DNA of 64,000 nucleotides from Candidatus Omnitrophota bacterium (GCA_022710715.1 JAKLGJ010000003.1:89083-153082), one strand, 5' to 3'. Counted from the first letter of the stretch, positions 3,487-62,813 are shown. Numbers and translations: made by a program. The notes: generated from the sequence alone by a model not told the origin.

Positions 3487-4266
3487 CTACCGCAATTCTT
3501 CTTTCAAAATATAATAGAACGCTTCCCGCGCCTGGCGCTCGATCCAGGGCTTGTGTCCGCACGACTCAAGCTGGATAAACCGGAAATCCTGCACAACCGC
3601 AGTTAAGGGTTTATTCACCCCTTCAGCCGGATGCGGATCATGCTCTCCGTGTATAGCCACGACCGGACACTTGATCCGGCCGGCCAAACGCAGCAGCTCT
3701 CCGCTGGAACGCAACCGGTCCGCCTGCGGCCAGACGCTTTGAAAAATATCTTCCCGGAAATCCACGCTCGTTCCTTCTTCCGGTAAAGGATCGAAGGCAT
3801 CGGTCCGGGAGAACAGGGCGCCGAAACGCGCGAATGCCGAATTTCTGTCCTCGGCCCTTCCCTTATTCAGGATCACCATCAGTTCATCCGCTTCCGCCCG
3901 CTGGCGTTGATCCAGGCGCTTGAGCCGCGTATCCATGATCCGGACGGCATACCGTTCCTCGAACGGTCCGCTGCTCACCAGAATAAGTTTCCTGACGCAT
4001 TGGGGATTCCGCTCGGCGAGCAAACAACTCAACCACGCTCCCCAGGAAAAACCCACCAGGATGGCCGGCAGACTCGCCTGCGCCTGCAGGGTATCGCGTA
4101 ACTCTTCGATCTGCGCTTCTACCGAACACGCGGTCTGCAGCGGCTCTAACACACCCCGCTCCCCGGAAAGTTCCCGCGCGACCGCGGACATCTCGCCCGC
4201 CGCTCCCGGCCCTCCGTGAATGACTGCTACAGAATAAGGAGCATCACCGTATGTTCGCGCCGGCAT
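3487..4266 (-). CDS. Alpha/beta-hydrolase fold protein, serine hydrolase
   Basis: 259 aa. It has an HGGPG oxyanion region, a GFSWGAW nucleophile elbow (GxSxG) and a C-terminal His (CGHKPW). Confidence 0.7.
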   Translation of the reverse strand: MPARTYGDAPYSVAVIHGGPGAAGEMSAVARELSGERGVLEPLQTACSVEAQIEELRDTLQAQASLPAILVGFSWGAWLSCLLAERNPQCVRKLILVSSGPFEERYAVRIMDTRLKRLDQRQRAEADELMVILNKGRAEDRNSAFARFGALFSRTDAFDPLPEEGTSVDFREDIFQSVWPQADRLRSSGELLRLAGRIKCPVVAIHGEHDPHPAEGVNKPLTAVVQDFRFIQLESCGHKPWIERQAREAFYYILKEELR

Positions 4267-18631: not shown

Positions 18632-21600
18632 CTACGGGTTTGCCTGGTAATCGCGGTAATTGGAATAAATTTCGGCGAGAATCCGGTGAGCCTGTTCTTC
18701 CAGAAGGATCGGACGCGCGTCGTGGAATAAACTCTGATAATCCGAGTCGCGGATAAGCTGATATGCCCCGAACACAAAATACACATTCTTCATCTGCTCG
18801 GGATGATCCAGGAACCACTGCATTTCATGAGAAGTCACCGATCCCTGCTCCACCTTGCTGTCCCCGAGAACAGCCTCGGGAACAAAGAACACGATCGGCC
18901 TGCCTTCAGAGGTGATCTCATTCAAATAACGGGTGGTATGATCTTCCCGATCTCCGTAGCGCCGGTCATATTCGGACATCCATTCTTTTAGATCTCCGGC
19001 TAAAGCCAGGGCTGAATAATCGTCCTGGGAATGGTACGTAGTGATCCCCAGCGCTTCCCCGTCCCGGTTGCGGAAGCTCGCCAGATTCTCGAGATAATCA
19101 TATATGGATATGACCCCTGCGGATTTTGCGCGCATAGCTGCAATCTGCGCCGCAGACAAACCGCTCAACTGCACTTCCCGCTCAAAATCCACCGGCTGCA
19201 GGATCGCATGATCGGCCTGCGCCAGCCGCTGCTGCACATAATCCGGCCGGTTTTCCACTTCGATCCGGAATAACGCGCGCCCGGCTTCGCTCTGGGCAAG
19301 CCTGATGAGTTGATCCTGCGACAAAAGCGACTTCAGCTCTTGAGAGCTCTTACCCGAAACCTGCAACTGCGCCCGTATAACATCCGGGGCCTTTCCGGTC
19401 AGCTCTATAATCGTATTGATCGCCAGATTCCTGTCTTCTCCGGTGGACGTGAACGCCTGCTCGACAGCCACTTTGGCTAACGGCGTTATGCCGGGTATCT
19501 GCGGCACGACGGTTGATTGTTTAACTTCCGCGCGCCCCTGATTTACCGTTTCTTCAAGCCTGGCGATCTGCGCGCTGATCTCCGCGTCGATCTTCACCGC
19601 TTCTCTCTGACCGGCTTCGGAGCGGATACTCGCGGCATTGCTCACCGCTCTTCGCTGCTGCAACTGCTTCAACCGCGCCAGTTCCCCTTCCGCCTGTTTC
19701 ACCTGCGCTTCAGTTGGCCCGCCGAGGCAGGCGGCAGCAATACTTCCGGCCCTTTCCACAGTCACCTCAACACCCTGATCTCTCAAAGCTTTCTGCATCT
19801 GACTGGCGAGATCTTTACCGCTCAAAGAAGCTCCGGACATTTGCTGGGCTATGGTATCGATCGCTTCATCGCTAAGACCGCGCAATGGATTGTCAGGATT
19901 GCTGCTGGCGCGCACGAACCGGATACCCCGGTCAAAAATATCTCTGCGGTTTTCTAATTGCGGACGATACGCTGAAGAATAATAATCAAGCACATTCTTA
20001 TGTGTACCGGCAAGAATAGCTTGTCTGATCGCATCCGCGTTCTGCGTAAGATGCGCATAGAAATCGTCCGTAACCACTCCGGACAAAGAAACATAATTTT
20101 GTGAAAGTGCGGGATTTTTCTCAATCATATCTTTCATAGCTTTACTACTTGCAATCAAATTACTGGTCATGCGACGGGAAATATCCATGGAGTCGACCGT
20201 GGAAAGATAATCCGACATCTCCCTTTCGACAAAGGTATCCAGCTGCGCCCTGTCTACATTTTCGCGGAGTTCCTCCGCTATCCCGGAATAAACAAAATCC
20301 GCCCAACCCCGGGCATCGTACTTCTGCGTTAATGGATTGGCACGCATATCTTCCGGGAAAGCATTGTCGAAATCGGATAAAGCGATATGTTTTCCGCTTT
20401 CCCTGCTGGTGACCGTTATTTCAGCGAGTTTTTCCAGATCAGCCAAAGGGCTCAAAACATTATACAGAGACCTCTTGGTCCCGATTTGCTTCAGGACATT
20501 ATTGATCTGATGAGGATCCTGCGCGTGCAGATACATCTTAAGCATATCGCTCACCGGAAAAGCCTTCGCTCGGATCAGCGTTTCCTGATCACCCATAATT
20601 GTTCCACCAATCAGCCAGTTTATCTTAATGAAAGAACCTCTTCCTGTTTTCATTTGTCCGGAATCTACAAATGCGGAAATTTCGTTAAGCGCATCTTGAG
20701 TATCCTTGTTCTCGAGCGATTGAGGACGCTCGCCTATCTGCCGCACAAAACGCAATACCGCGCGATAATCAAAATCTCCGCTCTTGGTCAAGCGTAAATT
20801 ATTGTTAAGAACGTCCTGCTTATAGCTTCCTCCGGTCTCATCGGTAATTTTCCAGCCTCCTTCATTATCACGATAAATACTCAACCGGTCCAGGGTAGCC
20901 GCTTTATTTCTTATCCCGCTATACTGGGACTCCACCACATATCCTTCCAGATTGACGATATCGGCATGCACTCCAAAGGTTTTCTCGATCTCCTGTTTAA
21001 AATCCCGTAACGCGCCCATCTCATCTTCCGTCAACACCACGTTGGCTGTTGCGGAAGGTCGCACGATAAGGTCGATATCGGAATAACCGTTGTCCTGTTT
21101 GCCGCCAAGCACCATTCTGCGCGCCGTCCCTCCGCCAAAAGCGATCTCCAATCCTTCGAATTCCGCCCTGGAGGCAATTTCTGCGATCATCGGGCTGATC
21201 TCAATTGAAACGCTGCTCTGATCCGGGAACCGCGCATCTGCTCTTACGTTACCGGCTTCAGGCTGTTGGAATGAAGGAACATTTGCGCCATTGAGCCCTG
21301 CGCGCCCGGCAATTGCCGTTGCCATATTCTGCAGGACCCGGTCCATCTGCTCCGCCGACACCTCGATATTCTGGCGCACCGCGCCGCTGGGCATCTTCTC
21401 ATTGATCCCGACATTGACCCCAAACACGGATACATCCGTACGATCTCCGCTATTGACCACCGAACCTTTGGAATAATACTTACTGAAAAAATCGCCATCC
21501 CTGGGCAAGCCCAGAGAATCTTTATAAAATTGTTCCAGCACTCCGATCATATCCTTAGTATAAACGTTGCCCTCGTATTCTTCTCCCAGAAAACTCTTGC

Positions 21601-24600
21601 CGTTCGCATTTGGTTTCTTGAGATTAATGAAGTTATCATGCAGAGTTTGCGCAAGTTCCTGCGCATCCCGCTGCCGGGTGACCGGATTGTTCAACCGCTC
21701 GCACGCGGCTTGCGCGTTTTTCTGCGCGAAGGCCGAAAGACGCTCGATTTCCGGCCCGTCGAAATGCCTGCCCATATTCTCGTTCATCCGGTCGAACGGG
21801 ATATCCTTATCGCTCAACCAGTGTATCGCGCCGTCCGATCCTTGAGTGCCGACCCTGACATCAAAAAGGTACATGCTGCCGTCCCGCTCAACCCGATACA
21901 CGCCGTCAAGGTCCGGCAGTTTGACACCGATAAATGTGACGAACACCTCGTTGATTTTCTCCGTGATTCCGGCTGCATCCTTTGCGCCCCGGATATACAT
22001 TGTTGTGCTGGAGGCGTAATCCATGTGATTATGGAGCAAAGATTCCAGCGCGCCTCTCACATCATTTTCCAGAAGCGAACGTTGCTGCGCGGCATCCCTA
22101 TCCCCGGCAGGTGCTATCCCTGCGCGCTGCGTGATATATTCGCCCAGATTTCGCAGGATCCTATCCATAGCCTTACGGTCCAGGTTCGTGGTCCGCACCA
22201 CGCCGGCTGCGGTCATCTCAACCTCGCCGACTGTAACCCCCAGAATGCCGGTCGTCTGGCGATCTCCAACATTTACCACCTGCCCCTCATGATTAAACTG
22301 ACTATTCAAAAGAAATCCATTTCCAGCTGGAGGTAATCCCAATTCTGTTTTATAGACCTCTTCTAAGCGCACAAGAACATCGGTAGGATGGACGTTTCCA
22401 CGGAAGAACTCTGGCTTACCGGCATATTTTTTCTGGAAATCACTTTCTATCTGCGGCAAAAGAGTATCTACGATTCTATCTCTGAATTGCGGACTCTGCA
22501 GATTGACCACCGCTTGCTGCGCTGCCGCCACAACCTGCGTTTTCATCCGCTCAAGAGACGTGCCGCTGAAAGTTTCCGCGATATTCTTATTCATCGTTGC
22601 AAAATCGATCTGGGCATCCGGCAGCCAATTGATCCTGCCATCAGCCTGTCGTTGCCCGGACAGAACGTCAAATACATAAACATCTCCTGTTGCATCAACA
22701 CGCATTAACTTTTCATTGAAGCCGTTGATGACCCCTGAAGGTAAACGAACTGCGTTAAGCAATACTGACTCTATTCTCCCGACCGGGTCAACCGACGGTT
22801 CACGCAGGATACCGACTAACCATTGCCCGGTTTTATTGTTACTATCCTGCAGAGTAACCAGTCTGTGCTCCAGGTCTCTTTCTATCGGCAATGACGTTTC
22901 TTCCGGAACCGGCGCCGTCGCTCTGTTCAACAGCCGGGAGGCTATAGACTGAACTCTATCCATTATCGAAGTGCCTTCTGCAACGGAGTTTTTCTCGACT
23001 CCAGCGGCGCGCGGAACAATCGGCCCGCCCAAGCACAAGGTAATGATGCCGCCTGCTTCAGACTGGGATAGCGGCGTGCCGCGCTGCTCCATATACTCCA
23101 TCAGCACCCGCTCATGCGTGCCGTAATCCGCGCGGGTCAGCCTCGAAGCGAGATCGCCGATCTCTCCGGAACTCAGATCCTTCAAGCGCGAATTCGCCGT
23201 CCCCTGTTCGAACTCCAACCCTCTCCTGAACACATCGTTACCCGAATTTTTCTTCTCGCCCGGAGACAGGCGCATCCCGGCGCCGGAAGCCCTGTTGATC
23301 ACCTCTTCTATGGCGAAATATATCCCGCTGCTGGTCCCGATCATCTCGTAATAATTCTGTGCCGCCCGCCCCAGAGCCGGATCGAGCGCGTTCGCTCTTT
23401 CCGCCAGAGCCGCGTACTCTTCGTATTTGTGCGACCATTCCCGATCCAGGGAAATTCCCGGAGACAGATTCTCGCCGATGAGCACGTCGCGGGTATCGCG
23501 CACATACGGCTTCAGCGCTGCCACAAAATCCTCGATCTGCTGCGCGCCCGGCCGTTCGCTTAAATACACGGTAACCGGATCATACCGGTCATACCAGTGT
23601 CCGGCTGTTGCGGGAGTCTTGTACCGGTTGACCAGTTCCGGGTATTTAAGCATAAATCCGTCCAGGGACTCGATCAGCCCTTCCTGCGCCAGGGCATTGA
23701 CGGAAAAACGCCAATCAGTTCCCGAGATATCCGCAGTATCGCGATCAGCCGGAAGCCGGTAGATGAACCCTTCGCCGGCATAGGTAGAAACAACTTCCTC
23801 TCCATTGACCAGACGCGGTTTAGACGCTCTATCGGCTATCGCAGGATCCTCGGAAGGCCGCGGGTTGTAAGAAGTGTGGCGCGCAGAGGAATACAGATCG
23901 CGGATAAAACGGCTATACATGCTCTGCGCATTATGCGGAACCCCGTATGCCTGGGACATATAATCGTAGCTCCATTCCGGGTCGCTCCTCGATCTGTCGA
24001 TATAATCGCAATATTCCTGAATCGCTCTTACCCGGGCTGTCTGGTGCTGCGGATAATCCGCTTCTGCGGATAAACTGTTGCTCCATGCCTCTTCGGCTGT
24101 CTGCCTCTGCGTCTTAATCACGGCCGGTTTATCTTTAGCGGGGGCGGTCTGCGCTTGCTGTTTGCTGCCGGCCGCCTGTTCGCCGCCCGCTGCCTCTGAC
24201 GCGCCGGCAGGCGCCATTTCGAGATCGATCAACCTGTTTGTTGCCGGGATAACCTCGGGCATGCGCCTTTCATTGTCGACCTGCTTTTGCGGCTGCGGCT
24301 CGGCGCTTGCAGAAGACGTCCGACTGCCGGAGACAGGCCGGTTCGACAATGCCTCGTCGTACGCTACCCGCGCCGAAGTATCTTTGCCGATGCGCTCGTA
24401 CGCCCAGTTGATGTCGATCATTCTTTCGGAACCTGCGGGATTCACGTCCGGGTGATACTGCTTGGTCTGCGCGCGGTAAGCTTTGTTTATTTCGGCCGGA
24501 GTTGCATCCCGGTTCACCTTGAGAATATCGTACGCCGACTCGCCGTTGCGATACACCTCTGCGTCAGTCGGCCGCACTGCCGAATCCGCCGGCCGGTCAA

Positions 24601-27600
24601 GACTGACGCTGCCGCCGTAGCGAGGAATGGCGAAGAACGGCAGCCAGCCCAGCAATTGGGCGTCCTGTTCGGTCATACCCAGCGTAGATTGCGTGACATC
24701 GTTGAAGAGCAAAGCGTTGGTCCCGGCGGTAAAACCGCTGAAGAACACCGCGTCATCCACGCTGCGCAGGAATGCGCCGGGCGTGGTCGGGAACATGGTC
24801 AGCCAGCTCTTCTGCACCGCGCCTTCTCCGGCGCTGGTCAACTCGCGTCCCAGAAGCGTTCTGGCCGTGCCGCGAAAATATCCATACGTCCCGGTATTTT
24901 GCGCCCACCGGGCGATACGGCCGGTACCCGCGGGATCCCATGTGGATGTAGTCAATCCCGCGACCTCGGTCAACGGACCCAGCCATAAGCCGGTATCTTT
25001 AGGAGAACTCGCCGCGCTCAACAACAGGTCCTGATACCAGGGCAGGCCTTCTTCGCCGTGCGGCCCGATCATCTCATCCGCAGACCAGTCGCCGGTGGTC
25101 AAACCCTCCCAGACATTGCCCAATCCCCAACCCACGGTATGGAACACCGGACCGACGAACACGAACGAACCCGCGCCGCGCAAAGAATCCGCTGCCAGCG
25201 TTTCCGGAGCCAGCGCATACGCGCCCAGCCGGCTGTCCACTCCCAGCAAATACCTGCCGGCCATCTGGCCGGTGCCGGATTCCGTACCCAATAAATAATT
25301 ACCCGCTCTGCCGGCAACGCCGGTCAATCCCAGTCCCTGCAATCCGGCGCTGAAGATAAATCCCTGGCCGTAGCCGTGACGCGCCGACTGCACCGTATCT
25401 TCCAGACTCGAAAGTCCCTGACCGCTGATCAAAGAATAGGCGTTATCCGAAGCTGCGGACACGCCTGCCCAGACCGCTCCGGAACGGGCAGCGCCCTGGA
25501 TCAATTTTCCTGCCTGCATACCCCGGCTGCCTGCGGCGAAAATCTCCTCACCTGCGCTCGACAACGCTATGCCGGTTTCCGCGGTGCCTCCCAGAATATC
25601 CGCTACCTGCATGCTCCGGGAGCCGATAGCCAGCGCCTCGTCGCCGATCAACGGGCTGACCAGCGTCAAAACCAGCGCCGCATCCGATGCCAGGTCCATC
25701 CAGGTATACGTCTGGGGTGTGAAAGTATAACTGGCCGTCGCCAGCGGATTTTTATTCACGCCGGCAGACACTACGGAAGACTGCCCGGAAGCATTCGCTG
25801 TTTCAGTATACGCATTCCATTCGGAAGAATCGATAAAAACCGAGGGGATCGCTCTCAAAGTAGTGATGCTCAACGGAGCGGGAATGCTGTTGATCAGCCC
25901 CGCGTTATACGCTTGATCGCCGGAATTAAGCAACGCCGGATCGACCGGGTTTTCATCGAGATACTGCTGCACATTATCCATTACGGATTGATCCACCACT
26001 GCGTTCATCTGGCCGCTGATCGTCGCTGATGCGCCCGCCCAGCCCGAAGCCAGACTTACCCAGAAATCGCCTTCAGCCTGGCCGAGCAGATACTGCGCGA
26101 CTACCGCTTTATGCTGCCGCTGCGCGCCGGTCTCTTCGGGCAGATCATTCCAATAGGTATACGCGCCCATCACGTCCGCCGCCTGGCTGTCTGACGGGCG
26201 ATAGCTGGCCACGAATTCTCCCTCGGCATTGAGCTCGTACCCCAGGCTCTGCGTCACCACGCTGATCTCATTGGGCAAAGTCACCAGAGAGCTCGGCTTG
26301 AGCATATCCGGGCTGACCCAGCCGGTGCGCTGTTTTCCGCTGCCGTCGGTATAGGTAACCATCACGTTGCCGTAGATGAAATTGAACATCCCCGGGTCAT
26401 CCTGGATCGCCTGCTGGCTCACCGGATACATTTTGCTGCCGTCGCTGCCGGCAACCGTCACGTTCACCGTGCCCTGGTACGTTCCGGGAATAGTGGTCGA
26501 GAATGAAACCCCGTCAATGCTGATCACGTCGGGATTCAACGCGTTATTGGCCGCCTGCGCCCCTTCCTGCATGCCATTGGCCCAGCCGCCGGTGATACCG
26601 CCGATAACCGCAGCCAATCCGATGTTCAGCTGCTCAACCAGCCCGGGAGCGCTCTGATGCCCGACCATAGAGGCCACGTTGCCCTGCGCGTCGAGAGTAA
26701 TAGTCACCTGCTTACCGGGATCCTGGCTATCGGTCAAAATGATAGTCGTATCGCCAATAACTTCTATCTCGGTCTGGCTGCTTAGAGCCATGGATTGTCC
26801 GTTGATGTTCAAGTACTGCACCGGGGCGTCCGCTTCAGTGGACCGGCTCACCGACACATGCTCGGACATAGCGGCGACCGAATAGTCCGTCCCATTACTG
26901 CTCACTACCGCTCCCTGCGCGTCTGTGGAATAAACGATAGCCCCGGAAGGATCCAGGACCACGGCATGGCGATTTTCATCATACTGGCCGGCAAGCTTAC
27001 CCTGTTCATAAACCTGTATCAGCGTCCTGCCGTTGGCGTCCGTGGTGACAAACTCGTAATTCTGCGCGTCCAGGTAATTCCGGTATTTTCCGGAAGCGCC
27101 GGTGGAATCCTGAACCGTCCACGGCGTGCCGTCATCCTTATACAGCGTGGTCACCGTGCGAGTACTGCCGTCGGGATTAGCCAGATACGTATACTGTTTG
27201 AACGGCACGAACTGTTGCTGGCCGTTGGCGTTGGTGATGGTATACCCCTCGGTAACGCTCTGGGTGTGCTCTGCGCCGACAGCATCGTAACTTTTCACGG
27301 TAATACGATCAGAGGTGCGAATAGTCGTGGTCCGGCTGGCCGGATCGAAAATCCCGGCAGTCAGCATATCGTTTATATTCCTCGCGCTTTGATTGATCTG
27401 ATTATTGATCTGCTGCATGGTCCCTGCGCCGGTTCCGGGAATTGCCGCCGCGGCCTGCAGTATGCCGATAGTGCGCACCTCGGCATTAACGTCATCGGCG
27501 CTGTAATATCCCGCTGGCGTGGCCATGCCCTGGGTCTGGCCGTTGACGGTCAATATTCCATCCGTAACCACATAGGCCGTTCCGTCCTGGCCTTGCAGGG

Positions 27601-30600
27601 TCAGGGTATTTCCGTCGGATGTCGAGCCGGCAACCATGATCTTACCCAGGCTGCCGTCGGCAGTGCGCTGATAATATGCGCCGGTGTTCTTATCCTTATA
27701 GAGCTGGCCGCGGTCGTCGACCGCGATCATGGTCGTGCCGGAACTTGAAGCCAGCGTATCGAGTACGGACTGGGGCAGGGACTGTCCGGTCTGACCTTCG
27801 TAGGTGCTCTGGAACAATAATCGGATCTCTCGATCGGAAAGCGGCTGGCCGATGCTTTCCTGAAAAGCTATGGTCTGCGCGACAGCCGCAGCCACGCCGT
27901 TATCCGCAGGCTGGTTGAGGATCGGCTTGAATGCCTCGATCTGCGTGCCGTCCGGATTCCTGCCGCCGGTGGCTGAAAGTATCGCCAGCAGATCCATAGT
28001 CGCTCCGGTATCTCCGGCATTTGATCCCGCGATCAATCCCGGCAAAACATAATTATCCCGGTAATAGGGATCATCCAGAGCGTTCTGCAAAGGCTTGAGG
28101 CTTTCGATGGTCGTGCCGTCGGGATTCTTGCCGCCGGTCACCGCGTAAACATAATTAAGCTGCTGCTGCGCGCCGACGTCGCCTCCGGCAGCTTTTTCCT
28201 GCAGATCAGGCACCAGGTAATAATCCCGGTAATACGGGTTGTTGGCGTCTGCGGCAAGCTGGCGTTCCTCCAGCGTCGGTTCGGACCGGGCAGGAGAACG
28301 GGCTTGCTGATCCACTGCTCCCCAGGACATAAAACCGAATGAGTTTCCGTTGTAAGACCATCTTCCCTTACCGAGCAGCCCGGCGCTATCTTTGCGGATG
28401 GTCAGGGCGGAGCAGGATGCGCCGATCTCCGGGGTCTGTCCGGGAACCAGGATCGCCTGCAGCGGAACGTAAAAAGTCTGATCATCGGCGCTGAAGGTCA
28501 CATTCGCATAGCGCACGAAATCCGGGATGATCACCTGCCCGTGTTCGTCCGTCGCCGGATCGGCGCTTAATCCCATCAAACCGGTTATTTCTTCCATACC
28601 GATATCTGCCGCAGCCAGATCGCTGGACTTGACCACTTTCCAGGTCCCTTCCTCTCCTTCGAATGGAGACGGCACGTAGACCGCGGAATAAACCAGGCCG
28701 GTGACATCATATTGCTTGCCGTTGATGGTAGCCGTACAGGTTTGTATCTGATCCGCGCCTTCATAATTATTGGCCTGCCAATTTGAGACGTTCGATTCGG
28801 ACAGAGCTACGGCGCACGCAAGAATATCCTGGCTGGGCGGCAGCTGATGATACGTATAGGTATACAGCCATAAAGCGGCGTGCTCCAGCTGCGGAGTCCA
28901 TACCAGAGGATTGTCTAGAGAAATGGTAACACCGGCCGGCGCCTGTTTGGATTCGTCTATTCTTACTTTAGCCACGACTCCGTTGTCGATACTCACCCAG
29001 GACTGGCTGTTGCGGTCGAGAAAATTCACGTTCTTCGGTACTGTTCCGTCCGCGCCGAGGCTGAAATCCGCGTTCGCGGTAAGCACCGTACCGTCGGCAA
29101 GGCCGAAGGCATCGCCTTTTTTATAGCCGGTCTGCAGGAATTGGCCGTCGGCTTGAGCAACCCATTGCCGGCCGTTGGAGGTGAATGCGGTGCCGGCAGG
29201 GATCACCCCGTTGGCTGCGTTAAAATCTTTAGCTGCGGTAAGGACGGTTTTGTCGTTCAGGGTGATGGTGTCGCCGGCTTTATACGACGTCTGCACGAAT
29301 CCCACTGCGTCGTGAATGGTATAGTCCTGCATGTCGCGCGGACCATTAAGACATGTCCAGGTCCTGCCCTGCTCGTCGGTTAACACCGTTCCCGAAGGCA
29401 TGGCGATACTGCCGGCGCGCGAAACCGCCATCGTACATGACTGGGTGGCGGTCAAAGTAACTCCTTCGGCTATTTCGAAGGTATCTCCCGGTTTGACGGT
29501 CAGATTGACCATTCCGCCTTCGGTGGACGCCCATTGATTGCCTGCGGCATCCACGTAATTGGAAGTTTTATTATTCCCGGGTTGCGAGCGTAGCACGGTG
29601 CCGTCGACAAGTGTAATAACCGCAGTCCTGGAATTCCCGGTTTCCGTGGAGGCTACGGCAACCGGCGCGCGCAAAGGCATATCGGCCCAGGCGATGTTGC
29701 CGGATCCCGGAACGATATTCCCCACGCCTGCCACGCGCAGGGTTCCTTCGATATTCAACCCGGTTGTTTTAGAAAGAAGCGCATCGGGAATGCGGGAATC
29801 GGCGGTCAACACAGGATAATCGCGGAATGCGGTTGCGGGAGAAACGGTATTTGCCGGATCGGCTGCGTCCGGGTTTACTGCCGTGGCTTTGCCGAGCATC
29901 CGGGTGACGGTTTCCGGCTGCATCTGCCTGATGATCGCGTTTGCCTGCTTCAACCCGAGATTCTCATGCTTGAGCAGGCTGGCGCCGATAGCGGTCTCCA
30001 CATGATCCATGGCCGGACCGGCCTTTTCCGCCTGCATCGCCTTAAGGATGGACGCCGCTCTGGGCAAACCTTGATTTGCCGCCGCGACGCTATTTAATAC
30101 TTTACCTGCGGTTTCCGGCTGAAGAGAGTTCATCATCTCTCCGGCCCGGGACAGATCAAGCGTGGGATCGGCGATAATCTTTGCGATCACATTCGCAGGC
30201 ATCCCCTGAAGGATGGACGCGAGATGCTGTTTATCGTTTAGCAGCTCCATCACCGACACCGCTTTGGGCGTTTCGACCGAAGCGATGAGCATTCCGGCTA
30301 TTTGAGTATCCATCTGCCCGAAAACTTCCGCCAGCGCCGGCGGTTCGAATGATTTGCTGTTGATAATGTCTACCGCGTTCTGCGTGCGCATATTCTCCAG
30401 AATAGTCGCGGCCTGTCCCGGATCGGTCATCTGCGCAAGGATCGCGGCGGAATTGCCGGGTGTGCCGGCGGCAAGGATATCCGCGGCTTTGTTCGCCCTG
30501 ATCTCTCCCATGATCCGCGCGGCCTGGTTGTTCTGGACCTGCCCCAGGATAGCAGTGGCGGTATCAGTGGTAATCGCATCGTTATTGAGGATCGACGCGG

Positions 30601-31546
30601 CTTTCTCTGCGGACAACTGGGTCAGGATCTGGCCGGCCAGTGCGGCGTTGCCGGATTGCGTCATGCTGCTGATCACCGCGGCGCCGATCGCCGGCGAAAC
30701 GGAACTGATCATCGTGACCTGCTGGGCCATGGACGCCTGTCTCATCGTGGCCAGGGAATTCAGCAGATTGACGTCGGCTTGATTTACTACGGAATCCGCA
30801 TTGAGATCCATGCTCGCGGAAACCACACCCGAATTGACAGAACTGGTAAATGTGGAGACATCCGCGCTGTTGAACACCGCGTTGCCGTCGAAATCGAGCT
30901 GGCTGGTGAGGGTGGAATTCGGCTGCCAATTGCCGGTGCTGACCAGATTATACGATGATGTGTTCATCACCGAAGAAAATGCTGTATTAGAAAGTGTGGC
31001 ACTGGAAACCGTGCCGGTCTGGACATTGGACAGAATATCGCGGTTAAACGATCCTTCGATGGTTGACCCCGCGCGCGTAGCAAAATCGAATCTATCGCTC
31101 ATGATGCCTGCGTCCGCTGCCGTGGGCATAATGGGAGTAAACCCGCCCAACGCTTCCGAAGGAATTACCGGTTTAAATGTATCGGTTATGCTTACGCCGG
31201 CGAATCCCGCATCGGATAATCTTACATTAGCGAAACTCGAGATCGATTCAGAAGGAATACTTGGCTTGATAATATTATCCGCCTTATAAGAGTCGAGTAT
31301 CGGGCTTGAGTAAGAAATCGGGCTGTCCGTGAATTTGGAGGCCAGGGAACTGGGGCTGACGAAACCCGAACCGGAGTAAGATGGAATAACGCCGCCGGTA
31401 TCCCCGCTTCCGGAGGTCTGATCGGAAGAACTGCTAAGCTGAATCCCCAGGGGGCCTTCAAGCGCGGAACTGGAATACTGGATAAAAGGATTAAAGGTGA
31501 GCAGCAACGATAAAAACAGGCTGCAGATTTGGCGTAATGCTCTCAT
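18632..31546 (-). CDS. Giant secreted multidomain protein A1, about 4300 aa (4335 aa from the track's start at 31639). It contains a dockerin-like motif, MgtE-N-like repeats, the family A core, a J domain, tandemly duplicated modules of about 200 aa and an NTase motif.
   Basis: I prefer the start at the ATG at 31546, which has an AGGAGA RBS and begins directly with the signal peptide MRALRQICSLFLSLLLTF. The track's 31639 start has no RBS and lies inside hairpins. Domains read from the translation: dockerin-like DxNxDxxVN repeats at about 30760-30905; MgtE_N-like A..IL..M repeats at about 30200-30760; the core shared with A2 at about 24560-25920 (EEGLPWYQDLLLSAASSPKDTGLWLG); a J domain with HPD at 24349-24560; tandem modules at about 21300-22710; and an NTase motif GGGTARRMVLGGKQDNGYSDIDLIV at 21041-21140. 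Confidence 0.8.
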   Translation of the reverse strand: MRALRQICSLFLSLLLTFNPFIQYSSSALEGPLGIQLSSSSDQTSGSGDTGGVIPSYSGSGFVSPSSLASKFTDSPISYSSPILDSYKADNIIKPSIPSESISSFANVRLSDAGFAGVSITDTFKPVIPSEALGGFTPIMPTAADAGIMSDRFDFATRAGSTIEGSFNRDILSNVQTGTVSSATLSNTAFSSVMNTSSYNLVSTGNWQPNSTLTSQLDFDGNAVFNSADVSTFTSSVNSGVVSASMDLNADSVVNQADVNLLNSLATMRQASMAQQVTMISSVSPAIGAAVISSMTQSGNAALAGQILTQLSAEKAASILNNDAITTDTATAILGQVQNNQAARIMGEIRANKAADILAAGTPGNSAAILAQMTDPGQAATILENMRTQNAVDIINSKSFEPPALAEVFGQMDTQIAGMLIASVETPKAVSVMELLNDKQHLASILQGMPANVIAKIIADPTLDLSRAGEMMNSLQPETAGKVLNSVAAANQGLPRAASILKAMQAEKAGPAMDHVETAIGASLLKHENLGLKQANAIIRQMQPETVTRMLGKATAVNPDAADPANTVSPATAFRDYPVLTADSRIPDALLSKTTGLNIEGTLRVAGVGNIVPGSGNIAWADMPLRAPVAVASTETGNSRTAVITLVDGTVLRSQPGNNKTSNYVDAAGNQWASTEGGMVNLTVKPGDTFEIAEGVTLTATQSCTMAVSRAGSIAMPSGTVLTDEQGRTWTCLNGPRDMQDYTIHDAVGFVQTSYKAGDTITLNDKTVLTAAKDFNAANGVIPAGTAFTSNGRQWVAQADGQFLQTGYKKGDAFGLADGTVLTANADFSLGADGTVPKNVNFLDRNSQSWVSIDNGVVAKVRIDESKQAPAGVTISLDNPLVWTPQLEHAALWLYTYTYHQLPPSQDILACAVALSESNVSNWQANNYEGADQIQTCTATINGKQYDVTGLVYSAVYVPSPFEGEEGTWKVVKSSDLAAADIGMEEITGLMGLSADPATDEHGQVIIPDFVRYANVTFSADDQTFYVPLQAILVPGQTPEIGASCSALTIRKDSAGLLGKGRWSYNGNSFGFMSWGAVDQQARSPARSEPTLEERQLAADANNPYYRDYYLVPDLQEKAAGGDVGAQQQLNYVYAVTGGKNPDGTTIESLKPLQNALDDPYYRDNYVLPGLIAGSNAGDTGATMDLLAILSATGGRNPDGTQIEAFKPILNQPADNGVAAAVAQTIAFQESIGQPLSDREIRLLFQSTYEGQTGQSLPQSVLDTLASSSGTTMIAVDDRGQLYKDKNTGAYYQRTADGSLGKIMVAGSTSDGNTLTLQGQDGTAYVVTDGILTVNGQTQGMATPAGYYSADDVNAEVRTIGILQAAAAIPGTGAGTMQQINNQINQSARNINDMLTAGIFDPASRTTTIRTSDRITVKSYDAVGAEHTQSVTEGYTITNANGQQQFVPFKQYTYLANPDGSTRTVTTLYKDDGTPWTVQDSTGASGKYRNYLDAQNYEFVTTDANGRTLIQVYEQGKLAGQYDENRHAVVLDPSGAIVYSTDAQGAVVSSNGTDYSVAAMSEHVSVSRSTEADAPVQYLNINGQSMALSSQTEIEVIGDTTIILTDSQDPGKQVTITLDAQGNVASMVGHQSAPGLVEQLNIGLAAVIGGITGGWANGMQEGAQAANNALNPDVISIDGVSFSTTIPGTYQGTVNVTVAGSDGSKMYPVSQQAIQDDPGMFNFIYGNVMVTYTDGSGKQRTGWVSPDMLKPSSLVTLPNEISVVTQSLGYELNAEGEFVASYRPSDSQAADVMGAYTYWNDLPEETGAQRQHKAVVAQYLLGQAEGDFWVSLASGWAGASATISGQMNAVVDQSVMDNVQQYLDENPVDPALLNSGDQAYNAGLINSIPAPLSITTLRAIPSVFIDSSEWNAYTETANASGQSSVVSAGVNKNPLATASYTFTPQTYTWMDLASDAALVLTLVSPLIGDEALAIGSRSMQVADILGGTAETGIALSSAGEEIFAAGSRGMQAGKLIQGAARSGAVWAGVSAASDNAYSLISGQGLSSLEDTVQSARHGYGQGFIFSAGLQGLGLTGVAGRAGNYLLGTESGTGQMAGRYLLGVDSRLGAYALAPETLAADSLRGAGSFVFVGPVFHTVGWGLGNVWEGLTTGDWSADEMIGPHGEEGLPWYQDLLLSAASSPKDTGLWLGPLTEVAGLTTSTWDPAGTGRIARWAQNTGTYGYFRGTARTLLGRELTSAGEGAVQKSWLTMFPTTPGAFLRSVDDAVFFSGFTAGTNALLFNDVTQSTLGMTEQDAQLLGWLPFFAIPRYGGSVSLDRPADSAVRPTDAEVYRNGESAYDILKVNRDATPAEINKAYRAQTKQYHPDVNPAGSERMIDINWAYERIGKDTSARVAYDEALSNRPVSGSRTSSASAEPQPQKQVDNERRMPEVIPATNRLIDLEMAPAGASEAAGGEQAAGSKQQAQTAPAKDKPAVIKTQRQTAEEAWSNSLSAEADYPQHQTARVRAIQEYCDYIDRSRSDPEWSYDYMSQAYGVPHNAQSMYSRFIRDLYSSARHTSYNPRPSEDPAIADRASKPRLVNGEEVVSTYAGEGFIYRLPADRDTADISGTDWRFSVNALAQEGLIESLDGFMLKYPELVNRYKTPATAGHWYDRYDPVTVYLSERPGAQQIEDFVAALKPYVRDTRDVLIGENLSPGISLDREWSHKYEEYAALAERANALDPALGRAAQNYYEMIGTSSGIYFAIEEVINRASGAGMRLSPGEKKNSGNDVFRRGLEFEQGTANSRLKDLSSGEIGDLASRLTRADYGTHERVLMEYMEQRGTPLSQSEAGGIITLCLGGPIVPRAAGVEKNSVAEGTSIMDRVQSIASRLLNRATAPVPEETSLPIERDLEHRLVTLQDSNNKTGQWLVGILREPSVDPVGRIESVLLNAVRLPSGVINGFNEKLMRVDATGDVYVFDVLSGQRQADGRINWLPDAQIDFATMNKNIAETFSGTSLERMKTQVVAAAQQAVVNLQSPQFRDRIVDTLLPQIESDFQKKYAGKPEFFRGNVHPTDVLVRLEEVYKTELGLPPAGNGFLLNSQFNHEGQVVNVGDRQTTGILGVTVGEVEMTAAGVVRTTNLDRKAMDRILRNLGEYITQRAGIAPAGDRDAAQQRSLLENDVRGALESLLHNHMDYASSTTMYIRGAKDAAGITEKINEVFVTFIGVKLPDLDGVYRVERDGSMYLFDVRVGTQGSDGAIHWLSDKDIPFDRMNENMGRHFDGPEIERLSAFAQKNAQAACERLNNPVTRQRDAQELAQTLHDNFINLKKPNANGKSFLGEEYEGNVYTKDMIGVLEQFYKDSLGLPRDGDFFSKYYSKGSVVNSGDRTDVSVFGVNVGINEKMPSGAVRQNIEVSAEQMDRVLQNMATAIAGRAGLNGANVPSFQQPEAGNVRADARFPDQSSVSIEISPMIAEIASRAEFEGLEIAFGGGTARRMVLGGKQDNGYSDIDLIVRPSATANVVLTEDEMGALRDFKQEIEKTFGVHADIVNLEGYVVESQYSGIRNKAATLDRLSIYRDNEGGWKITDETGGSYKQDVLNNNLRLTKSGDFDYRAVLRFVRQIGERPQSLENKDTQDALNEISAFVDSGQMKTGRGSFIKINWLIGGTIMGDQETLIRAKAFPVSDMLKMYLHAQDPHQINNVLKQIGTKRSLYNVLSPLADLEKLAEITVTSRESGKHIALSDFDNAFPEDMRANPLTQKYDARGWADFVYSGIAEELRENVDRAQLDTFVEREMSDYLSTVDSMDISRRMTSNLIASSKAMKDMIEKNPALSQNYVSLSGVVTDDFYAHLTQNADAIRQAILAGTHKNVLDYYSSAYRPQLENRRDIFDRGIRFVRASSNPDNPLRGLSDEAIDTIAQQMSGASLSGKDLASQMQKALRDQGVEVTVERAGSIAAACLGGPTEAQVKQAEGELARLKQLQQRRAVSNAASIRSEAGQREAVKIDAEISAQIARLEETVNQGRAEVKQSTVVPQIPGITPLAKVAVEQAFTSTGEDRNLAINTIIELTGKAPDVIRAQLQVSGKSSQELKSLLSQDQLIRLAQSEAGRALFRIEVENRPDYVQQRLAQADHAILQPVDFEREVQLSGLSAAQIAAMRAKSAGVISIYDYLENLASFRNRDGEALGITTYHSQDDYSALALAGDLKEWMSEYDRRYGDREDHTTRYLNEITSEGRPIVFFVPEAVLGDSKVEQGSVTSHEMQWFLDHPEQMKNVYFVFGAYQLIRDSDYQSLFHDARPILLEEQAHRILAEIYSNYRDYQANP
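24349..24560 (-). other. DnaJ-type J domain embedded in giant protein A1
   Basis: YDILKVNRDATPAEINKAYRAQTKQYHPDVNP...INWAYERIGKD. This has the canonical helix II-HPD-helix III pattern. I located the DNA by reverse-translating YHPDVNP at 24426-24446. Confidence 0.6.
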
Positions 31547-31564
31547 GCTTTCTCCTGATCGCTG

Positions 31565-31597
31565 AAAATAAAAAACCCAAGGCAGCGATACCTTGGG
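31565..31597 (-). terminator. Strong intrinsic terminator 8 nt upstream of the RBS of giant gene A1, a putative transcription attenuator
   Basis: Minus-strand CCCAAGG-TATCGCTG-CCTTGGG followed by TTTTTTATTTT. A second GC hairpin CCCGCTGCCAAATGCAGCGGG lies at 31631-31651, further upstream. Confidence 0.6.
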
Positions 31598-31796
31598 TGA
31601 AAAAAACGTTCCCTTTGGTAACGCAGCCTCCCGCTGCATTTGGCAGCGGGACTGTCGCTTTGCGCCCCCCGATTACTCGAGGTTTGCCTTTATCAGTAGA
31701 ACTCTTCTTCTACTTACCTATTATTACTATTATATTTCCAACATATTAAGTATAGCACATTTTTGCTAAATTTCAACCTTACCAATTGCACAATTA

Positions 31797-31923
31797 GCAG
31801 ACGTTTTCCCCATCCGCATGTGGCACATTGACTTACAAAGATATTGTTCCGCACCGCCAAATTGACGCATAAATAATATTTTTGTAACCAATTGCCGCAC
31901 ATGCGGATGGGGAAAGCGTCTGC
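31797..31923. repeat. 127-nt intergenic inverted-repeat element, copy A. The arms are about 29 nt (GCAGACG(C)TTTCCCCATCCGCATGTGGCA) around an AT-rich core.
   Basis: It starts 2 nt after the stop codon of giant gene A2. The other copies, also exactly 127 nt, are at 42787-42913 and 62687-62813. The cores of A and B are identical (ATTGACGCATAAATAATATTTTTG). Confidence 0.75.
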
Positions 31924-31925
31924 GG

Positions 31926-34900
31926 TTAAAGGTTCAGGTCTCCGTAGCCGGGCATGGAATCTAGAGACTGATAAAGCTCTCGGCATGCGCTAAGCAATTT
32001 TTCCCGTTCCGCCGCATTCAATCCCGATTTCTCAGCCTTGGCCGTCAACTCGCTGACGGTTCTAAAAGCAAGCTCGGTTTGCGGCGCGCAAGCGCCCTCC
32101 GCCTGCAACTCTTTGTCTAAAGCCGCGTACCGCTGGCGATAAACCCCAAGGCTCGCAGCCAAAGGATGCGCCTGCCATTGCTCCGGAGTTAAAACGATCC
32201 TGTTCCGCTCACTGTTTTCCTTATCCAGCTTAAAGCTGGTTTGCTTGAAGCTGGCGGACATTTCGTTGCCATAGTGCCCGATCACTTCCGGTCCGTTGCC
32301 ATAGAAAAACCAACTATTCGCGAATTTCGTCAACGCCCGCACATACCTTAACATTTCATTCCGTTGTTCCGGAGAATACATCCCGGGATTCTCGGCGAGG
32401 AACTTCATCACCGGCCCGACAACGGTCTTTCGTATATCCCGATAAGCAGCGAACGGGTCATTTCCGTTCCCCAGCTGCAAAGATCTGGGAGTTCCATGCC
32501 CGCCGATCACCAGCAGATCGATAGATCCCGGTTCATTGGAATTTTTGATCCACTCCACGGCCTGGGTCAACGAATTGACTTCTTTGGTCCTTACTTCATA
32601 GCCGGAACTTTTCAGCTGTTCTTCAAGATCCCTTTCTTTGAATGCTCCATTATGATCGGAGGACGGCGTAAGGATCACCGCGATCTTTGTTTTTGCATCT
32701 TTTTCGATTGTTTCCCTCGCCGCTGTTCCACCCGCGACAAAACATTCCCCATCCCTTTTCACCGGCGCGCCCTCCATACGAACTTCCATTACCCCGTCAT
32801 AATGCACCGCATAATTCACCTTGTCGATCGCGCCTTTGTCACTGAAGTCTATCCGCATACTGCTGGAGGAATGCTGGGCGCCGAATGTCCGGCGGTCACC
32901 CAGGGCCTTGGACACTTCTGTCGCCAGATTGACATTATCGCCAGGCGTTACGGCTCCCGTAGAACAGCTGTTCAATATAATATCTGCATTCTCTTTCAAA
33001 TACGGACCGATCTCCTGCAATTGCGCCACGTTCTCCAGGCTCAATTTCGCGTCTTTCATCGACTCGCGCATCTGCTCGACGATATCCGGGATATGCCGGG
33101 AGATGTTCTCCAACTCCGCCTTACTCTGCGCAGACATCCCCAGCTCTTCCGGATAATGCTCTTCGAAAGTCCTTTCCCTGGCGGCTTCGGAGCCCGGCTT
33201 CTTTTCCGGCGCCGGCAGCAGATCATCAATAGCTGGCGCTTTAGCGTGAGTTTCCCGGTCAAAGGCAATCGCGTCCTCGGGACAATACCTGATCCACTCC
33301 CTCATCTGTTCCGCTACGGATTCTGACGCAAAACTGTATTCCTGCCGTAATTCCTTCGCTTTCTCCTGCCAGGCATTGATCTCATACAACTCATGTTCCA
33401 GCACCCGTTGATTAGCGGCATGCTCGGCATCCACATAAATAACCGCCTCACCGTACACCCTGCCCAGGCCGATATGCGCCAGCTGACCGGTTTTTTCGAG
33501 CAATCCTTCGATCGGAATAACCCGCGCAGCCGCACCGCAGCCTTCGGCTAAAGGATAGTTCTTAATATTGGTTTTGTCCGCAAGCAGATCGGCTGGCAGA
33601 TTGGCCTTAACATGCTCGTTTACCGCGGTATGCGTAGCTTTTTCCGCGCCGCCGGCAGCGAGATTGATATCCACTTCGTTTTGCGCGTCATCAGCCGCTT
33701 GCAGTTCCCTCCGACCGCTGTTTTCGGGGATCAGGTCTTTCTGCAGACGGATGTAATCGCGAATATCCAGCAGCTGATTATACGTTTCTTTGGCTTGCTC
33801 CAGCGCCTTCTGCCCCTTCTCTTTATTCTCGGCTTTACGCACAACTTGCAAAGGAGAAGCAGCCACCCGGTCCAGCTCTTTAATCGAGCTCCCGATCAAA
33901 TCAATCTGACGGTCGAGCTCTTCGAGCATGGATTCGCATTCCTGGCGGTTGATCGAACGCAGGTCAATGCGGGATTTCAGTATCCCTTCCGTAAACGGCC
34001 TGTGGATCTTTCCGATTTCCCACAGAATCTGGTTAGCCCGGTACGCGCTGGAGGTTCTGTCTTTCACCCAGTTTTCCGCCTTTGCCCCCAGCCATTCCTG
34101 CGCGTTGAGGAAACGATCCAGGGCGCTGTCGCCGATATGCTCCCACGGCCGGTCATGCATCAGATTCGGACTTGCAGACAACCCCAGGCCGTACGACATT
34201 GCCCCGGACGAATACAGATTAAAATGCTTAACCAGCCCTTCCGCCTTCCTGAACGCCTCTTCCACCGGAGTGAACACGAACTCATTCTCCGAGATCATCG
34301 GCAGCCAACCCCAGTTCTTATCCTGCACGCGCACGCCCATCGGGCCGAAATCATAATCCTGGCTGACCTTGATCTTCGCGGGATCTTTCTGCTGAACAAT
34401 CAGAGGAAGCAATTTCGGTATCGCTTCAGGCGAAGACACCTGCACATCGATCTCCCTGCCTTCGAGAAGATTATCCGGGATCTCGCCGAACAAGTTCTTC
34501 ACATCGAAAATATCCTGCAGATGCTCCAGGGAAATCTCATACTCTTCGGTAACACTGGAATAATCTTTAGCGGGATCGTACGGCCTGGATCCCGGGTCAA
34601 CCGTCTTGATCAGGAAATAGGGATCGCGTCCGGCAACAAACTGGATATCCACCACGCTGCCTTCCATGCCGCGCTTGCCACGAGAGAACGCATACGCGTA
34701 CAGCTTCATCGCCAGCTGGGCTTTCTGATTATTATTCAATCCGTCGAAGTTGTTCACCACGAAATCGAATATCTTCTTCTCGTTCTCGTTGCGCCAGGTC
34801 CTCCAGTCGTCATTGACTTTCTCTTCATACTGCACCCTGACCGACGCGCTCGGCAACTGCCCGCCGGACTCTTTGCCGATCTCGGTCAAACTGGTGGAAT

Positions 34901-42786: not shown

Positions 42787-42913
42787 GCAGACGCTTTCCC
42801 CATCCGCATGTAGCACAAAGATTTACAAAAATATTATTTGGCACCGCTAAATTGACGCATAAATAATATTTTTGCAACCGACTGCGGCACATGCGGATGG
42901 GGAAAGCGTCTGC
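42787..42913. repeat. 127-nt intergenic inverted-repeat element, copy B
   Basis: It ends 2 nt before the stop codon of giant gene B1 and lies upstream of the A2 start. Its arms and core match copy A. Confidence 0.75.
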
Positions 42914-53172: not shown

Positions 53173-53228
53173 CTTTTACTCCTTTTTAAAGTTTCAATTA
53201 AGTGAAAATAAAAAACGCCGCGATCTTT

Positions 53229-53251
53229 TTAGAACCGTGGCGTAATTCTAA
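53229..53251. promoter_or_regulatory. Palindromic site TTAGAA-CCGTGGCGTAA-TTCTAA, about 60 nt upstream of the B1 start codon
   Basis: Its counterpart upstream of B2 at 62565-62589 reads TTAAGAA-CCGTGGCGTAA-TTCTTAA. The spacer is identical and the arms carry compensatory changes. Confidence 0.5.
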
Positions 53252-53324
53252 CAGAAAATTTGTTCCTGTGTTTGAAAACGCTTTCAGCTTTTTATATAAA
53301 TAAGTATACCCTATAAAAAGCTAA

Positions 53325-62468: not shown

Positions 62469-62564
62469 GGGAGACTCCTTCTCTTTGTCTCCCCTCCCCC
62501 ACAACATTGTGTTTTAAAAAAAACCCGGTTTTTAAAAGACTCTTTGCTTGCGCAATAGAGATCG

Positions 62565-62589
62565 ATTAAGAACCGTGGCGTAATTCTTA
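62565..62589. promoter_or_regulatory. Palindromic site TTAAGAA-CCGTGGCGTAA-TTCTTAA upstream of B2
   Basis: See 53229-53251. It has the same position relative to the start codon. Confidence 0.5.
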
Positions 62590-62686
62590 ATTGACTAACT
62601 AACTCCTGATTGTACTAACAAGTATACGGATTACTGGACTGATTACAAGACGAAATATCAATATTATTGAAACCGCTTTCAAAACA

Positions 62687-62813
62687 GCAGACGCTTTCCT
62701 CATCCCAATGCGGCACAATGCATTACAATAATATTCTATATACGCCAATTCTTAAGCCGGTAATAATATCATTGCAACCTATTGCCGCATTTAAAGATGG
62801 GGAAAGCGTCTGC
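62687..62813. repeat. 127-nt intergenic inverted-repeat element, copy C (more diverged core)
   Basis: The outer arms GCAGACGCTTTCC / GGGGAAAGCGTCTGC are conserved. It overlaps the stop codon of the deaminase gene by 1 nt and lies upstream of B2. Confidence 0.65.

Follow-up and report, generated by a model that had tools for sequence, protein, structure and literature searches.

We analyzed the leader of a giant gene, here called A1, in a stretch of 64,000 nucleotides from a Candidatus Omnitrophota bacterium (GCA_022710715.1, JAKLGJ010000003.1:89083-153082; this whole stretch is hereafter the window), and found that it contains a class I cyclic di-GMP (c-di-GMP-I, or GEMM-I) aptamer followed by an intrinsic terminator directly in front of the gene. 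The leader is likely to be a class I c-di-GMP riboswitch that acts by transcription termination with OFF logic, and c-di-GMP is presumably its ligand in vivo. An earlier note on this DNA had described the leader as attenuator-like, with expression of A1 having to pass a promoter-proximal terminator, and this description stands.

Architecture of the A1 leader

All coordinates of the A1 leader are on the minus strand and were read directly from the window sequence. A promoter, the aptamer, the terminator, the ribosome-binding site (RBS) and the ATG follow one another in this order on that strand, i.e., they make up a 5' untranslated region (UTR) with an expression platform. The features are the following.

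31776-31749, minus strand: sigma-70-type promoter of A1, with -35 TTGAAA (31776-31771), a 16-nt spacer and an extended -10 TGcTATACT (31757-31749)
31697-31613, minus strand: c-di-GMP-I (GEMM-I) riboswitch aptamer (Rfam cmscan)
31682-31667, minus strand: first hairpin of the aptamer, with a GUAA tetraloop
31659-31620, minus strand: long second helix of the aptamer
31650-31630, minus strand: GC hairpin with arm CCCGCTGC (31650-31643), loop CAAAT (31642-31638) and arm GCAGCGGG (31637-31630)
31598-31565, minus strand: intrinsic terminator overall, stem-loop 31598-31575 (ACCCAAGGUA-UCGC-UGCCUUGGGU) and U-run to 31565
31597-31591, minus strand: terminator 5' stem, CCCAAGG (direct reading)
31590-31583, minus strand: terminator loop, TATCGCTG (direct reading)
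31582-31576, minus strand: terminator 3' stem, CCTTGGG (direct reading)
31575-31565, minus strand: terminator T-run, TTTTTTATTTT (direct reading)
31564-31557, minus strand: 8-nt spacer between terminator and RBS, CAGCGATC
31556-31551, minus strand: RBS of A1, AGGAGA
31546-31544, minus strand: ATG of A1
18632-31546, minus strand: A1, 4304 aa, signal-peptide-like N-terminus

Judged by its Rfam match and its contact bases, the element is a canonical c-di-GMP-I aptamer with a GUAA loop. The best Rfam model, RF03167 (c-di-GMP-I-GGC), is matched by cmscan over model positions 1-80 of 80 with 60.2 bits (E=1e-11), compared to a gathering score of 59. One more family of the same clan (CL00126) also exceeded its own gathering score and was suppressed as lower-scoring; this was presumably RF01051, for which the gathering score is 35 bits. 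The two-helix architecture and the conserved junction (AAAGGCAAACC ... GGGNCGCAAAGC ... UUACC) are present. In the Rfam consensus alignment, the equivalents of the ligand-contact bases G20, A47 and C92 (Vc2 numbering) are G31688, A31661 and C31618, and the interhelical pair C44-G83 corresponds to C31664-G31627, of which G31627 is invariant. The roles of G20, A47, C92 and of the universally conserved interhelical C-G pair have been described (PMC4744006, PMC5888326). The GUAA loop, which is of the GNRA type, occupies 31676-31673, and the second helix is without the 11-nt receptor motif.

A scan of metagenomes with a core-only aptamer pattern yielded 29 loci with 24 distinct aptamers (loci are cited below by L numbers). 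Both helices of the A1 aptamer are predicted by RNAfold and covary in these 24 related aptamers of the same subtype, with compensatory changes in 13 of the 21 stem pairs. The second GC hairpin that the earlier note had placed at 31631-31651 does exist, at coordinates shifted by one (31650-31630), and is the tip of the long aptamer helix rather than a separate element. Together with its flanks, this hairpin is recognizable as the c-di-GMP-I aptamer; thus, the riboswitch option, one of several mechanisms that the note had listed, applies.

Terminator, promoter and start of A1

The GC stem-loop with a U-run ending 8 nt before AGGAGA, on which the earlier note was built, was confirmed by direct reading. 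In the terminator scan, the same terminator has a stem of 10 bp and a loop of 4 nt (31598-31575), and the hairpin has a folding energy of -15.4 kcal/mol (RNAfold). A terminator scan with strict settings (≥7 perfect pairs, ≥4 GC, ≥6 T in 8) found seven sites in total on the minus strand of the 64 kb, including the one in the A1 leader; at this density, the chance of finding one in the 67-nt interval between aptamer and RBS is below 1%. Three of the other six sites are located in short gaps directly past gene ends (8580, 17046, 17748), one is within a short gene (4072), and two are within giant open reading frames (ORFs). The full leader folds more stably than its shuffles (z = -4.9; 0 of 200 as stable), and the RBS is unpaired in every predicted fold. 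The leader sequence is identical in two independent public assemblies, thus it is not an assembly artifact.

The promoter has 10 of 12 consensus matches, with the TG present, and lies ~45 nt upstream of the aptamer. Transcription presumably starts at about 31744-31742, which would give a leader of ~195 nt. This is the nearest good promoter upstream of A1 and, as the earlier note had stated, no promoter would fit between the terminator and the RBS. In the gene calls of five public contigs, A1 starts at 31546, giving 4304 aa. A 125-nt inverted repeat (31798-31922), located between the A2 stop codon (31926-31928) and the A1 promoter and not belonging to the switch, marks the boundary of the A2 and A1 transcription units.

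Proposed switching mechanism

Folding of the leader in silico, which the earlier note had proposed as a check for alternative pairings, yielded a candidate antiterminator and two further predicted elements.

31629-31617, minus strand: antiterminator 5' strand, AGGCUGCGUUACC, i.e., the 3' strand of the long helix with A91, C92 and the first P1 base
31592-31580, minus strand: antiterminator 3' strand, GGUAUCGCUGCCU, i.e., the end of the terminator 5' arm, the loop and the first bases of the 3' arm
31612-31599, minus strand: 3' strand of a predicted P1 extension, GGAACGUUUUUUUC, pairing with GAAGAAGAGUUCU (31710-31698)
31714-31708 and 31701-31695, minus strand: upstream hairpin AGUAGAA :: UUCUACU (RNAfold prediction only)

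We propose that the switch works as follows: (i) transcription would start from the promoter at 31776-31749, and the first ~130 nt would fold into the GEMM-I aptamer with a long P1, the terminator (31598-31565) coming 14 nt past the aptamer and ending 8 nt before the A1 RBS; (ii) with c-di-GMP bound, the aptamer and P1 would be locked, the terminator hairpin would form, and RNA polymerase would stop before A1; (iii) without c-di-GMP, the 3' strand of the aptamer (31629-31617, including C92) would pair with the emerging 5' arm and loop of the terminator (31592-31580), this antiterminator would block the terminator, and the 13-kb A1 gene would be transcribed. In the ligand-free fold, the 5' strand of P1 may be sequestered by the small upstream hairpin, which is predicted in the minimum free energy (MFE) structures of partial transcripts and in the structure with the antiterminator forced. 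The terminator is located outside the aptamer and has no base in common with it, so the bound aptamer is compatible with termination, which makes OFF the most likely direction; within the riboswitch reading, we favor this direction with some reservation.

The two antiterminator strands pair over 11 bp, and this predicted pairing would provide a reason for the unusually long 8-nt loop of the terminator. The MFE structure of the full leader (-60.5 kcal/mol) consists of the aptamer, a 13-bp P1 extension and the adjoining terminator; the predicted extension closes the whole aptamer, and its 3' end adjoins the terminator. An equivalent P1, CCCGUUG/CAAAGGG, is present in the relatives L013, L020, L030 and L032. 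The antiterminator state of the full leader has -55.2 kcal/mol. For transcripts ending at 31582-31578, in which the 3' arm of the terminator is yet to be made, the antiterminator is the MFE structure, 4-5 kcal/mol better than the intact aptamer.

Several observations weigh against this mechanism or the aptamer on which it is based. The antiterminator duplex has -17.5 kcal/mol, compared to -12.8 +/- 2.9 for shuffles, which is borderline (p ~0.07), and 2.6% of genomic windows match its complementarity equally well. The energy advantage of the antiterminator is small and is confined to a window ~4 nt wide. The P1 that Rfam draws here has two standard pairs and one flagged mismatch. No orthologous A1 leader was found, and the three assemblies that carry the leader are identical; consequently, P1, its extension and the antiterminator are without support from covariation. 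The same antiterminator is absent in the closest relatives of the aptamer (L013, L020, L030, L032), in which terminators are present. The window, the part of the genome that was examined, showed no gene for a c-di-GMP cyclase or phosphodiesterase. Because the complementarity is borderline and there is no orthologue for covariation analysis, the direction of switching is what we infer from the layout.

Two other pairings were considered. In a second antiterminator candidate, the 5' end of the transcript (AUAUGUUGG) can pair with a terminator arm (CCAAGGUAU); it was set aside because AUAUGUUGG is mostly upstream of the likely start site and the pairing is independent of the aptamer. A pairing between the P1 3' strand CCAAAGG and the terminator 3' arm CCUUGGG was spotted by eye and is in no computed fold.

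Related aptamers in metagenomes

About 12 of 25 distinct loci with related aptamers have a separate terminator at the same relative position, 3-36 nt past the aptamer. In two of the loci, L019 and L027, a strand of the long helix is strongly complementary to the 5' half of the separate terminator, which is the design proposed for the A1 leader. The L019 antiterminator (12 bp, p=0.006) is ahead of a two-partner secretion (TPS) exoprotein gene (>2843 aa), and that of L027 (14-20 bp, p=0.003) is ahead of a gene for an RHS/subtilase protein (2317 aa). In L030, a second aptamer with a terminator is found ahead of a TPS-like ORF (~2384 aa). Like A1, these three uncharacterized loci have the order aptamer, separate terminator, very large secreted-protein gene, whereas their downstream proteins and leader sequences are unrelated to those of A1. 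Conversely, the 3' strand of the aptamer itself serves as the 5' arm of the terminator in L025 and L033, an ON-type design. Since this opposite design was detected, the analysis can tell OFF from ON layouts.

Two of the closest relatives of the A1 aptamer, L020 (2512-2590, minus strand) and L030 (41-119, plus strand), have terminators of their own and face a convergent 625-aa ORF, with no downstream gene on the same strand; these aptamers may belong to antisense transcripts or to riboswitch transcripts that stand alone. L017, a single metagenomic contig, carries three c-di-GMP-I aptamers within 3 kb (1009-1099, 3660-3750, 3899-3989), two of them only ~150 nt apart.

Alternative explanations

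The same riboswitch could work in the opposite direction, with termination as the default and c-di-GMP causing readthrough, as in Bc2 of Bacillus thuringiensis before the cap adhesin gene. Bc2 is a class I ON switch with its terminator directly beside the ORF (PMC4933901). Surface and adhesion factors are usually favored by high c-di-GMP, A1 has a signal-peptide-like N-terminus, and the evidence for the antiterminator in the A1 leader is weak. An ON switch, however, needs a bound fold that excludes the terminator, whereas 31598-31575 has no nucleotide in common with the aptamer or the P1 extension, aptamer and terminator coexist in the MFE structure, and no upstream segment was found that pairs with the terminator solely in the bound state; the real ON-type layout was seen in L025 and L033 and not in the A1 leader. 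We therefore regard ON logic as improbable. A different ligand, e.g., 3'3'-cyclic GMP-AMP (3'3'-cGAMP, the GEMM-Ib class), or a GGC variant with unknown or altered specificity, is suggested by the RF03167 (c-di-GMP-I-GGC) label of the best model, by a G instead of A in GGG-G-CGC, and by an A at position 19. The defining feature of the GGC variant, as deduced by comparing the two Rfam consensus sequences, is a G replacing A47 (CGC-G-AA in RF03167, CGC-A-AA in RF01051), and the A1 aptamer has CGC-A-AA (A31661). The cGAMP class, according to the 2015 work of Kellenberger and of Nelson, reportedly has an A at position 20, and the base here is G31688. Among the relatives, all of which have A47, RF01051 is assigned to three whose second helix is long and receptor-like (the loop is GAAA in two and GGAA in the third), and the rest are labeled RF03167; the label thus depends on peripheral architecture rather than on the binding pocket, and a ligand other than c-di-GMP appears very unlikely.

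The mechanism that the earlier note had favored, processive antitermination by a NusG paralogue of the LoaP/RfaH type loaded on the leader, is not supported. It would suit the great length of A1, and promoter-proximal terminators without a recognizable riboswitch are found before A3, A4 and other Omnitrophota homologues, which indicates that a trans-acting factor may exist in the lineage. The A1 leader, however, is occupied by a complete ligand-sensing aptamer, and the search for the components of such a system was negative: none of the window ORFs of ≥150 aa matched a NusG/KOW Pfam family, and no GGCGGTAG-like ops motif was found between 31744 and 31547. The sole relaxed ops match is at 31858, upstream of the promoter and within the inverted repeat. 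In addition, a promoter of the same type (TTGAAA/TTGTAA-N16-17-TATACT/TACACT) is present upstream of A2, A3, A4 and Omnitrophota homologues; with its own promoter before each of the four long genes, these are separate transcription units rather than a long operon needing polarity suppression. The A1 leader can be explained without processive antitermination, to which we give very little credence there; at the leader terminators of A3 and A4, which are without a recognizable riboswitch, a trans-acting factor may act. The remaining case is translation from an ATG at 31639 with the hairpins inside the coding sequence, which the earlier note had named as contrary to its own reading, or, alternatively, ribosome-mediated attenuation by a leader peptide. 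No stop codon interrupts the 31 codons from 31639 to 31546, but the ATG lies in the loop of the aptamer hairpin without a Shine-Dalgarno sequence, whereas 31546 has a strong RBS before it, a signal peptide-like sequence after it, and the support of independent gene calls. The only other ATG of the leader (31745) opens a 4-codon frame at the extreme 5' end of the transcript; neither ATG has an RBS. The probability of a coding or leader-peptide function is negligible. A c-di-GMP riboswitch with OFF logic thus accounts best for the A1 leader.

The array of long genes

Between 18632 and 62507, the window has four tandem ORFs on the same strand (A1 to A4; 3036-4304 aa), with signal-peptide-like starts and very few recognizable domains. 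Those recognized in A1 are an MgtE_N-like domain (332-396) and DnaJ (2338-2397); A2 has Peptidase_C39 and a weak TraG-D_C, A3 a response-regulator receiver, and A4 HEAT. A1 and A2 have a region of ~850 aa in common (35% identity). A3 and A4 are paralogues with N-terminal domains that are 62% identical; this N-terminal domain has hundreds of homologues, of which the named ones are almost all from Candidatus Omnitrophota metagenome-assembled genomes (MAGs), and this puts the window in that phylum. The start of A2 (42209-42644) is ambiguous: the ORF from the first ATG has 3572 aa and a good signal peptide, public gene calls give 3427-3430 aa, and a terminator-like hairpin (42333-42308) lies between the two candidate starts. 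The window also encodes a ShlB/FhaC-TPS pair and PEP-CTERM proteins, and the bacterium is a diderm.

Relatives of A1 are hard to find. Comparison of its N-terminus with GTDB genomes gave only a weak Chloroflexi match, and comparison of A1 segments with a large protein database gave nothing usable: A1 itself was not recovered, and the listed matches were all <700 aa. Since A1 was not recovered by its own segments, very long proteins may be poorly reachable in this way, and the apparent lack of relatives is weak evidence. A look-up of the exact protein returned only assemblies with an identical leader. In an Omnitrophota MAG, a gene with PilZ, a c-di-GMP receptor domain, is located directly upstream of a gene of the A3/A4 family (L045, 21-335), which indicates that c-di-GMP signaling is present in Omnitrophota.

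The 125-nt inverted repeat has three copies (31798-31922, 42788-42912, 62688-62812), with arms CAGACGCTTTCCCCATC...GATGGGGAAAGCGTCTG; the 17-nt arm pattern would be expected to match 0.24 times by chance in the window. At its start, each copy comes to within a few bases of the stop codon of the gene upstream; from its end, it is another 20-40 nt to the promoter that follows (that of A1, A2 or A4). The repeat folds at -68.2 kcal/mol (z = -9.1) and has no U-run; it may serve as an insulator, an operator or an RNA 3'-end element, or be a miniature inverted-repeat transposable element. The corresponding place before A3 is taken by a long hairpin of another kind (~53385-53335).

In the leaders of A3 (53173-53300) and A4 (62469-62618), a hairpin with a U-run follows the promoter. 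A conserved block, UUAC(N)GCCACGGUUCUUA, forms the 5' arm of this hairpin and recurs before the homologous genes of two further Omnitrophota MAGs (L036, ~560-700; L042, ~380-500). The complementary 3' arm differs each time (GCGGCGU, AACCGGG, CGUGGC, UUGUGG), and the U-run comes next. This A3/A4 element has no Rfam match at E<=5, and a permissive Rfam scan of the A2-A4 leaders gave chance-level matches only, e.g., plant microRNA models on the inverted repeats. This element may represent an attenuator or antiterminator target that has yet to be described. A palindrome, GAAA(A/G)CG(C/T)TTTC, is located upstream of A3/A4-family promoters in several Omnitrophota MAGs (L036, L038, L039, L044, L045), and the same type is present in the window at ~62690-62660 and 42790-42760; it resembles the ends of the inverted repeat (GGAAAGCGTC) and may be a transcription-factor operator.

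It is conceivable, if rather doubtful, that the four long genes form an array of insulated units, each with its own attenuator (hairpin or inverted repeat, TTGAAA-TATACT promoter, leader terminator, gene), where A1 would be read by c-di-GMP and A3 and A4 by a different, undescribed element. In that case, the A3/A4 pattern would be consistent with a new antitermination signal, dependent on a protein or a ligand, in a gene family found widely across the phylum.

Significance and comparison with known systems

Omnitrophota are noted for very long genes, of which the function and the conditions of expression are unknown. Published work on these giant genes, within the literature that we searched, makes no mention of riboswitches, c-di-GMP, promoters or terminators. 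The riboswitch of A1 would be a first regulatory handle on a long gene of this phylum. If the OFF prediction holds, A1 is made at low c-di-GMP, which is a concrete and testable hypothesis, and the leader is a compact RNA that can be assayed in vitro without culturing the host. It should be noted that c-di-GMP-I switches with terminator platforms are textbook knowledge and were already known before large surface-protein genes, so that the A1 element itself is ordinary.

LoaP/RfaH-type, ops-dependent antitermination likewise takes RNA polymerase through terminators into very long units; it depends on a NusG paralogue, which was not found in the window, and on a leader element that recruits it, which was not found in the A1 leader. 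RF03167 is the best-scoring model for the A1 aptamer, but has a consensus G at the A47 position, where A1 has an A. Vc2 of Vibrio cholerae has the same G20, A47, C92 and interhelical C-G pair as the A1 aptamer; its GAAA tetraloop docks into an 11-nt receptor, whereas the A1 aptamer has a GUAA loop, no receptor motif and a much longer predicted P1. Bc2, upstream of cap (collagen adhesion protein) in Bacillus thuringiensis, is a class I ON switch in which most transcripts stop at the leader terminator (PMC4933901). Like that of A1, its terminator directly adjoins the ORF, which encodes a large secreted or surface protein; in Bc2, however, the ligand disfavors the terminator, whereas the separate terminator hairpin of A1 is compatible with the folded aptamer. 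Cd1 (Cdi-1-3) of Clostridioides difficile is a class I OFF switch, in which c-di-GMP raises the amount of terminated product (PMC6366702). The host of Cd1 is Gram-positive and the unit is a flagellar operon, whereas A1 is a single 13-kb gene in a diderm from a candidate phylum, and the OFF logic that was measured for Cd1 (PMC6366702) is predicted for A1; in both, a GEMM-I aptamer and an intrinsic terminator occupy the 5' UTR of a very long unit, which in the case of Cd1 is the 23-kb flgB operon.

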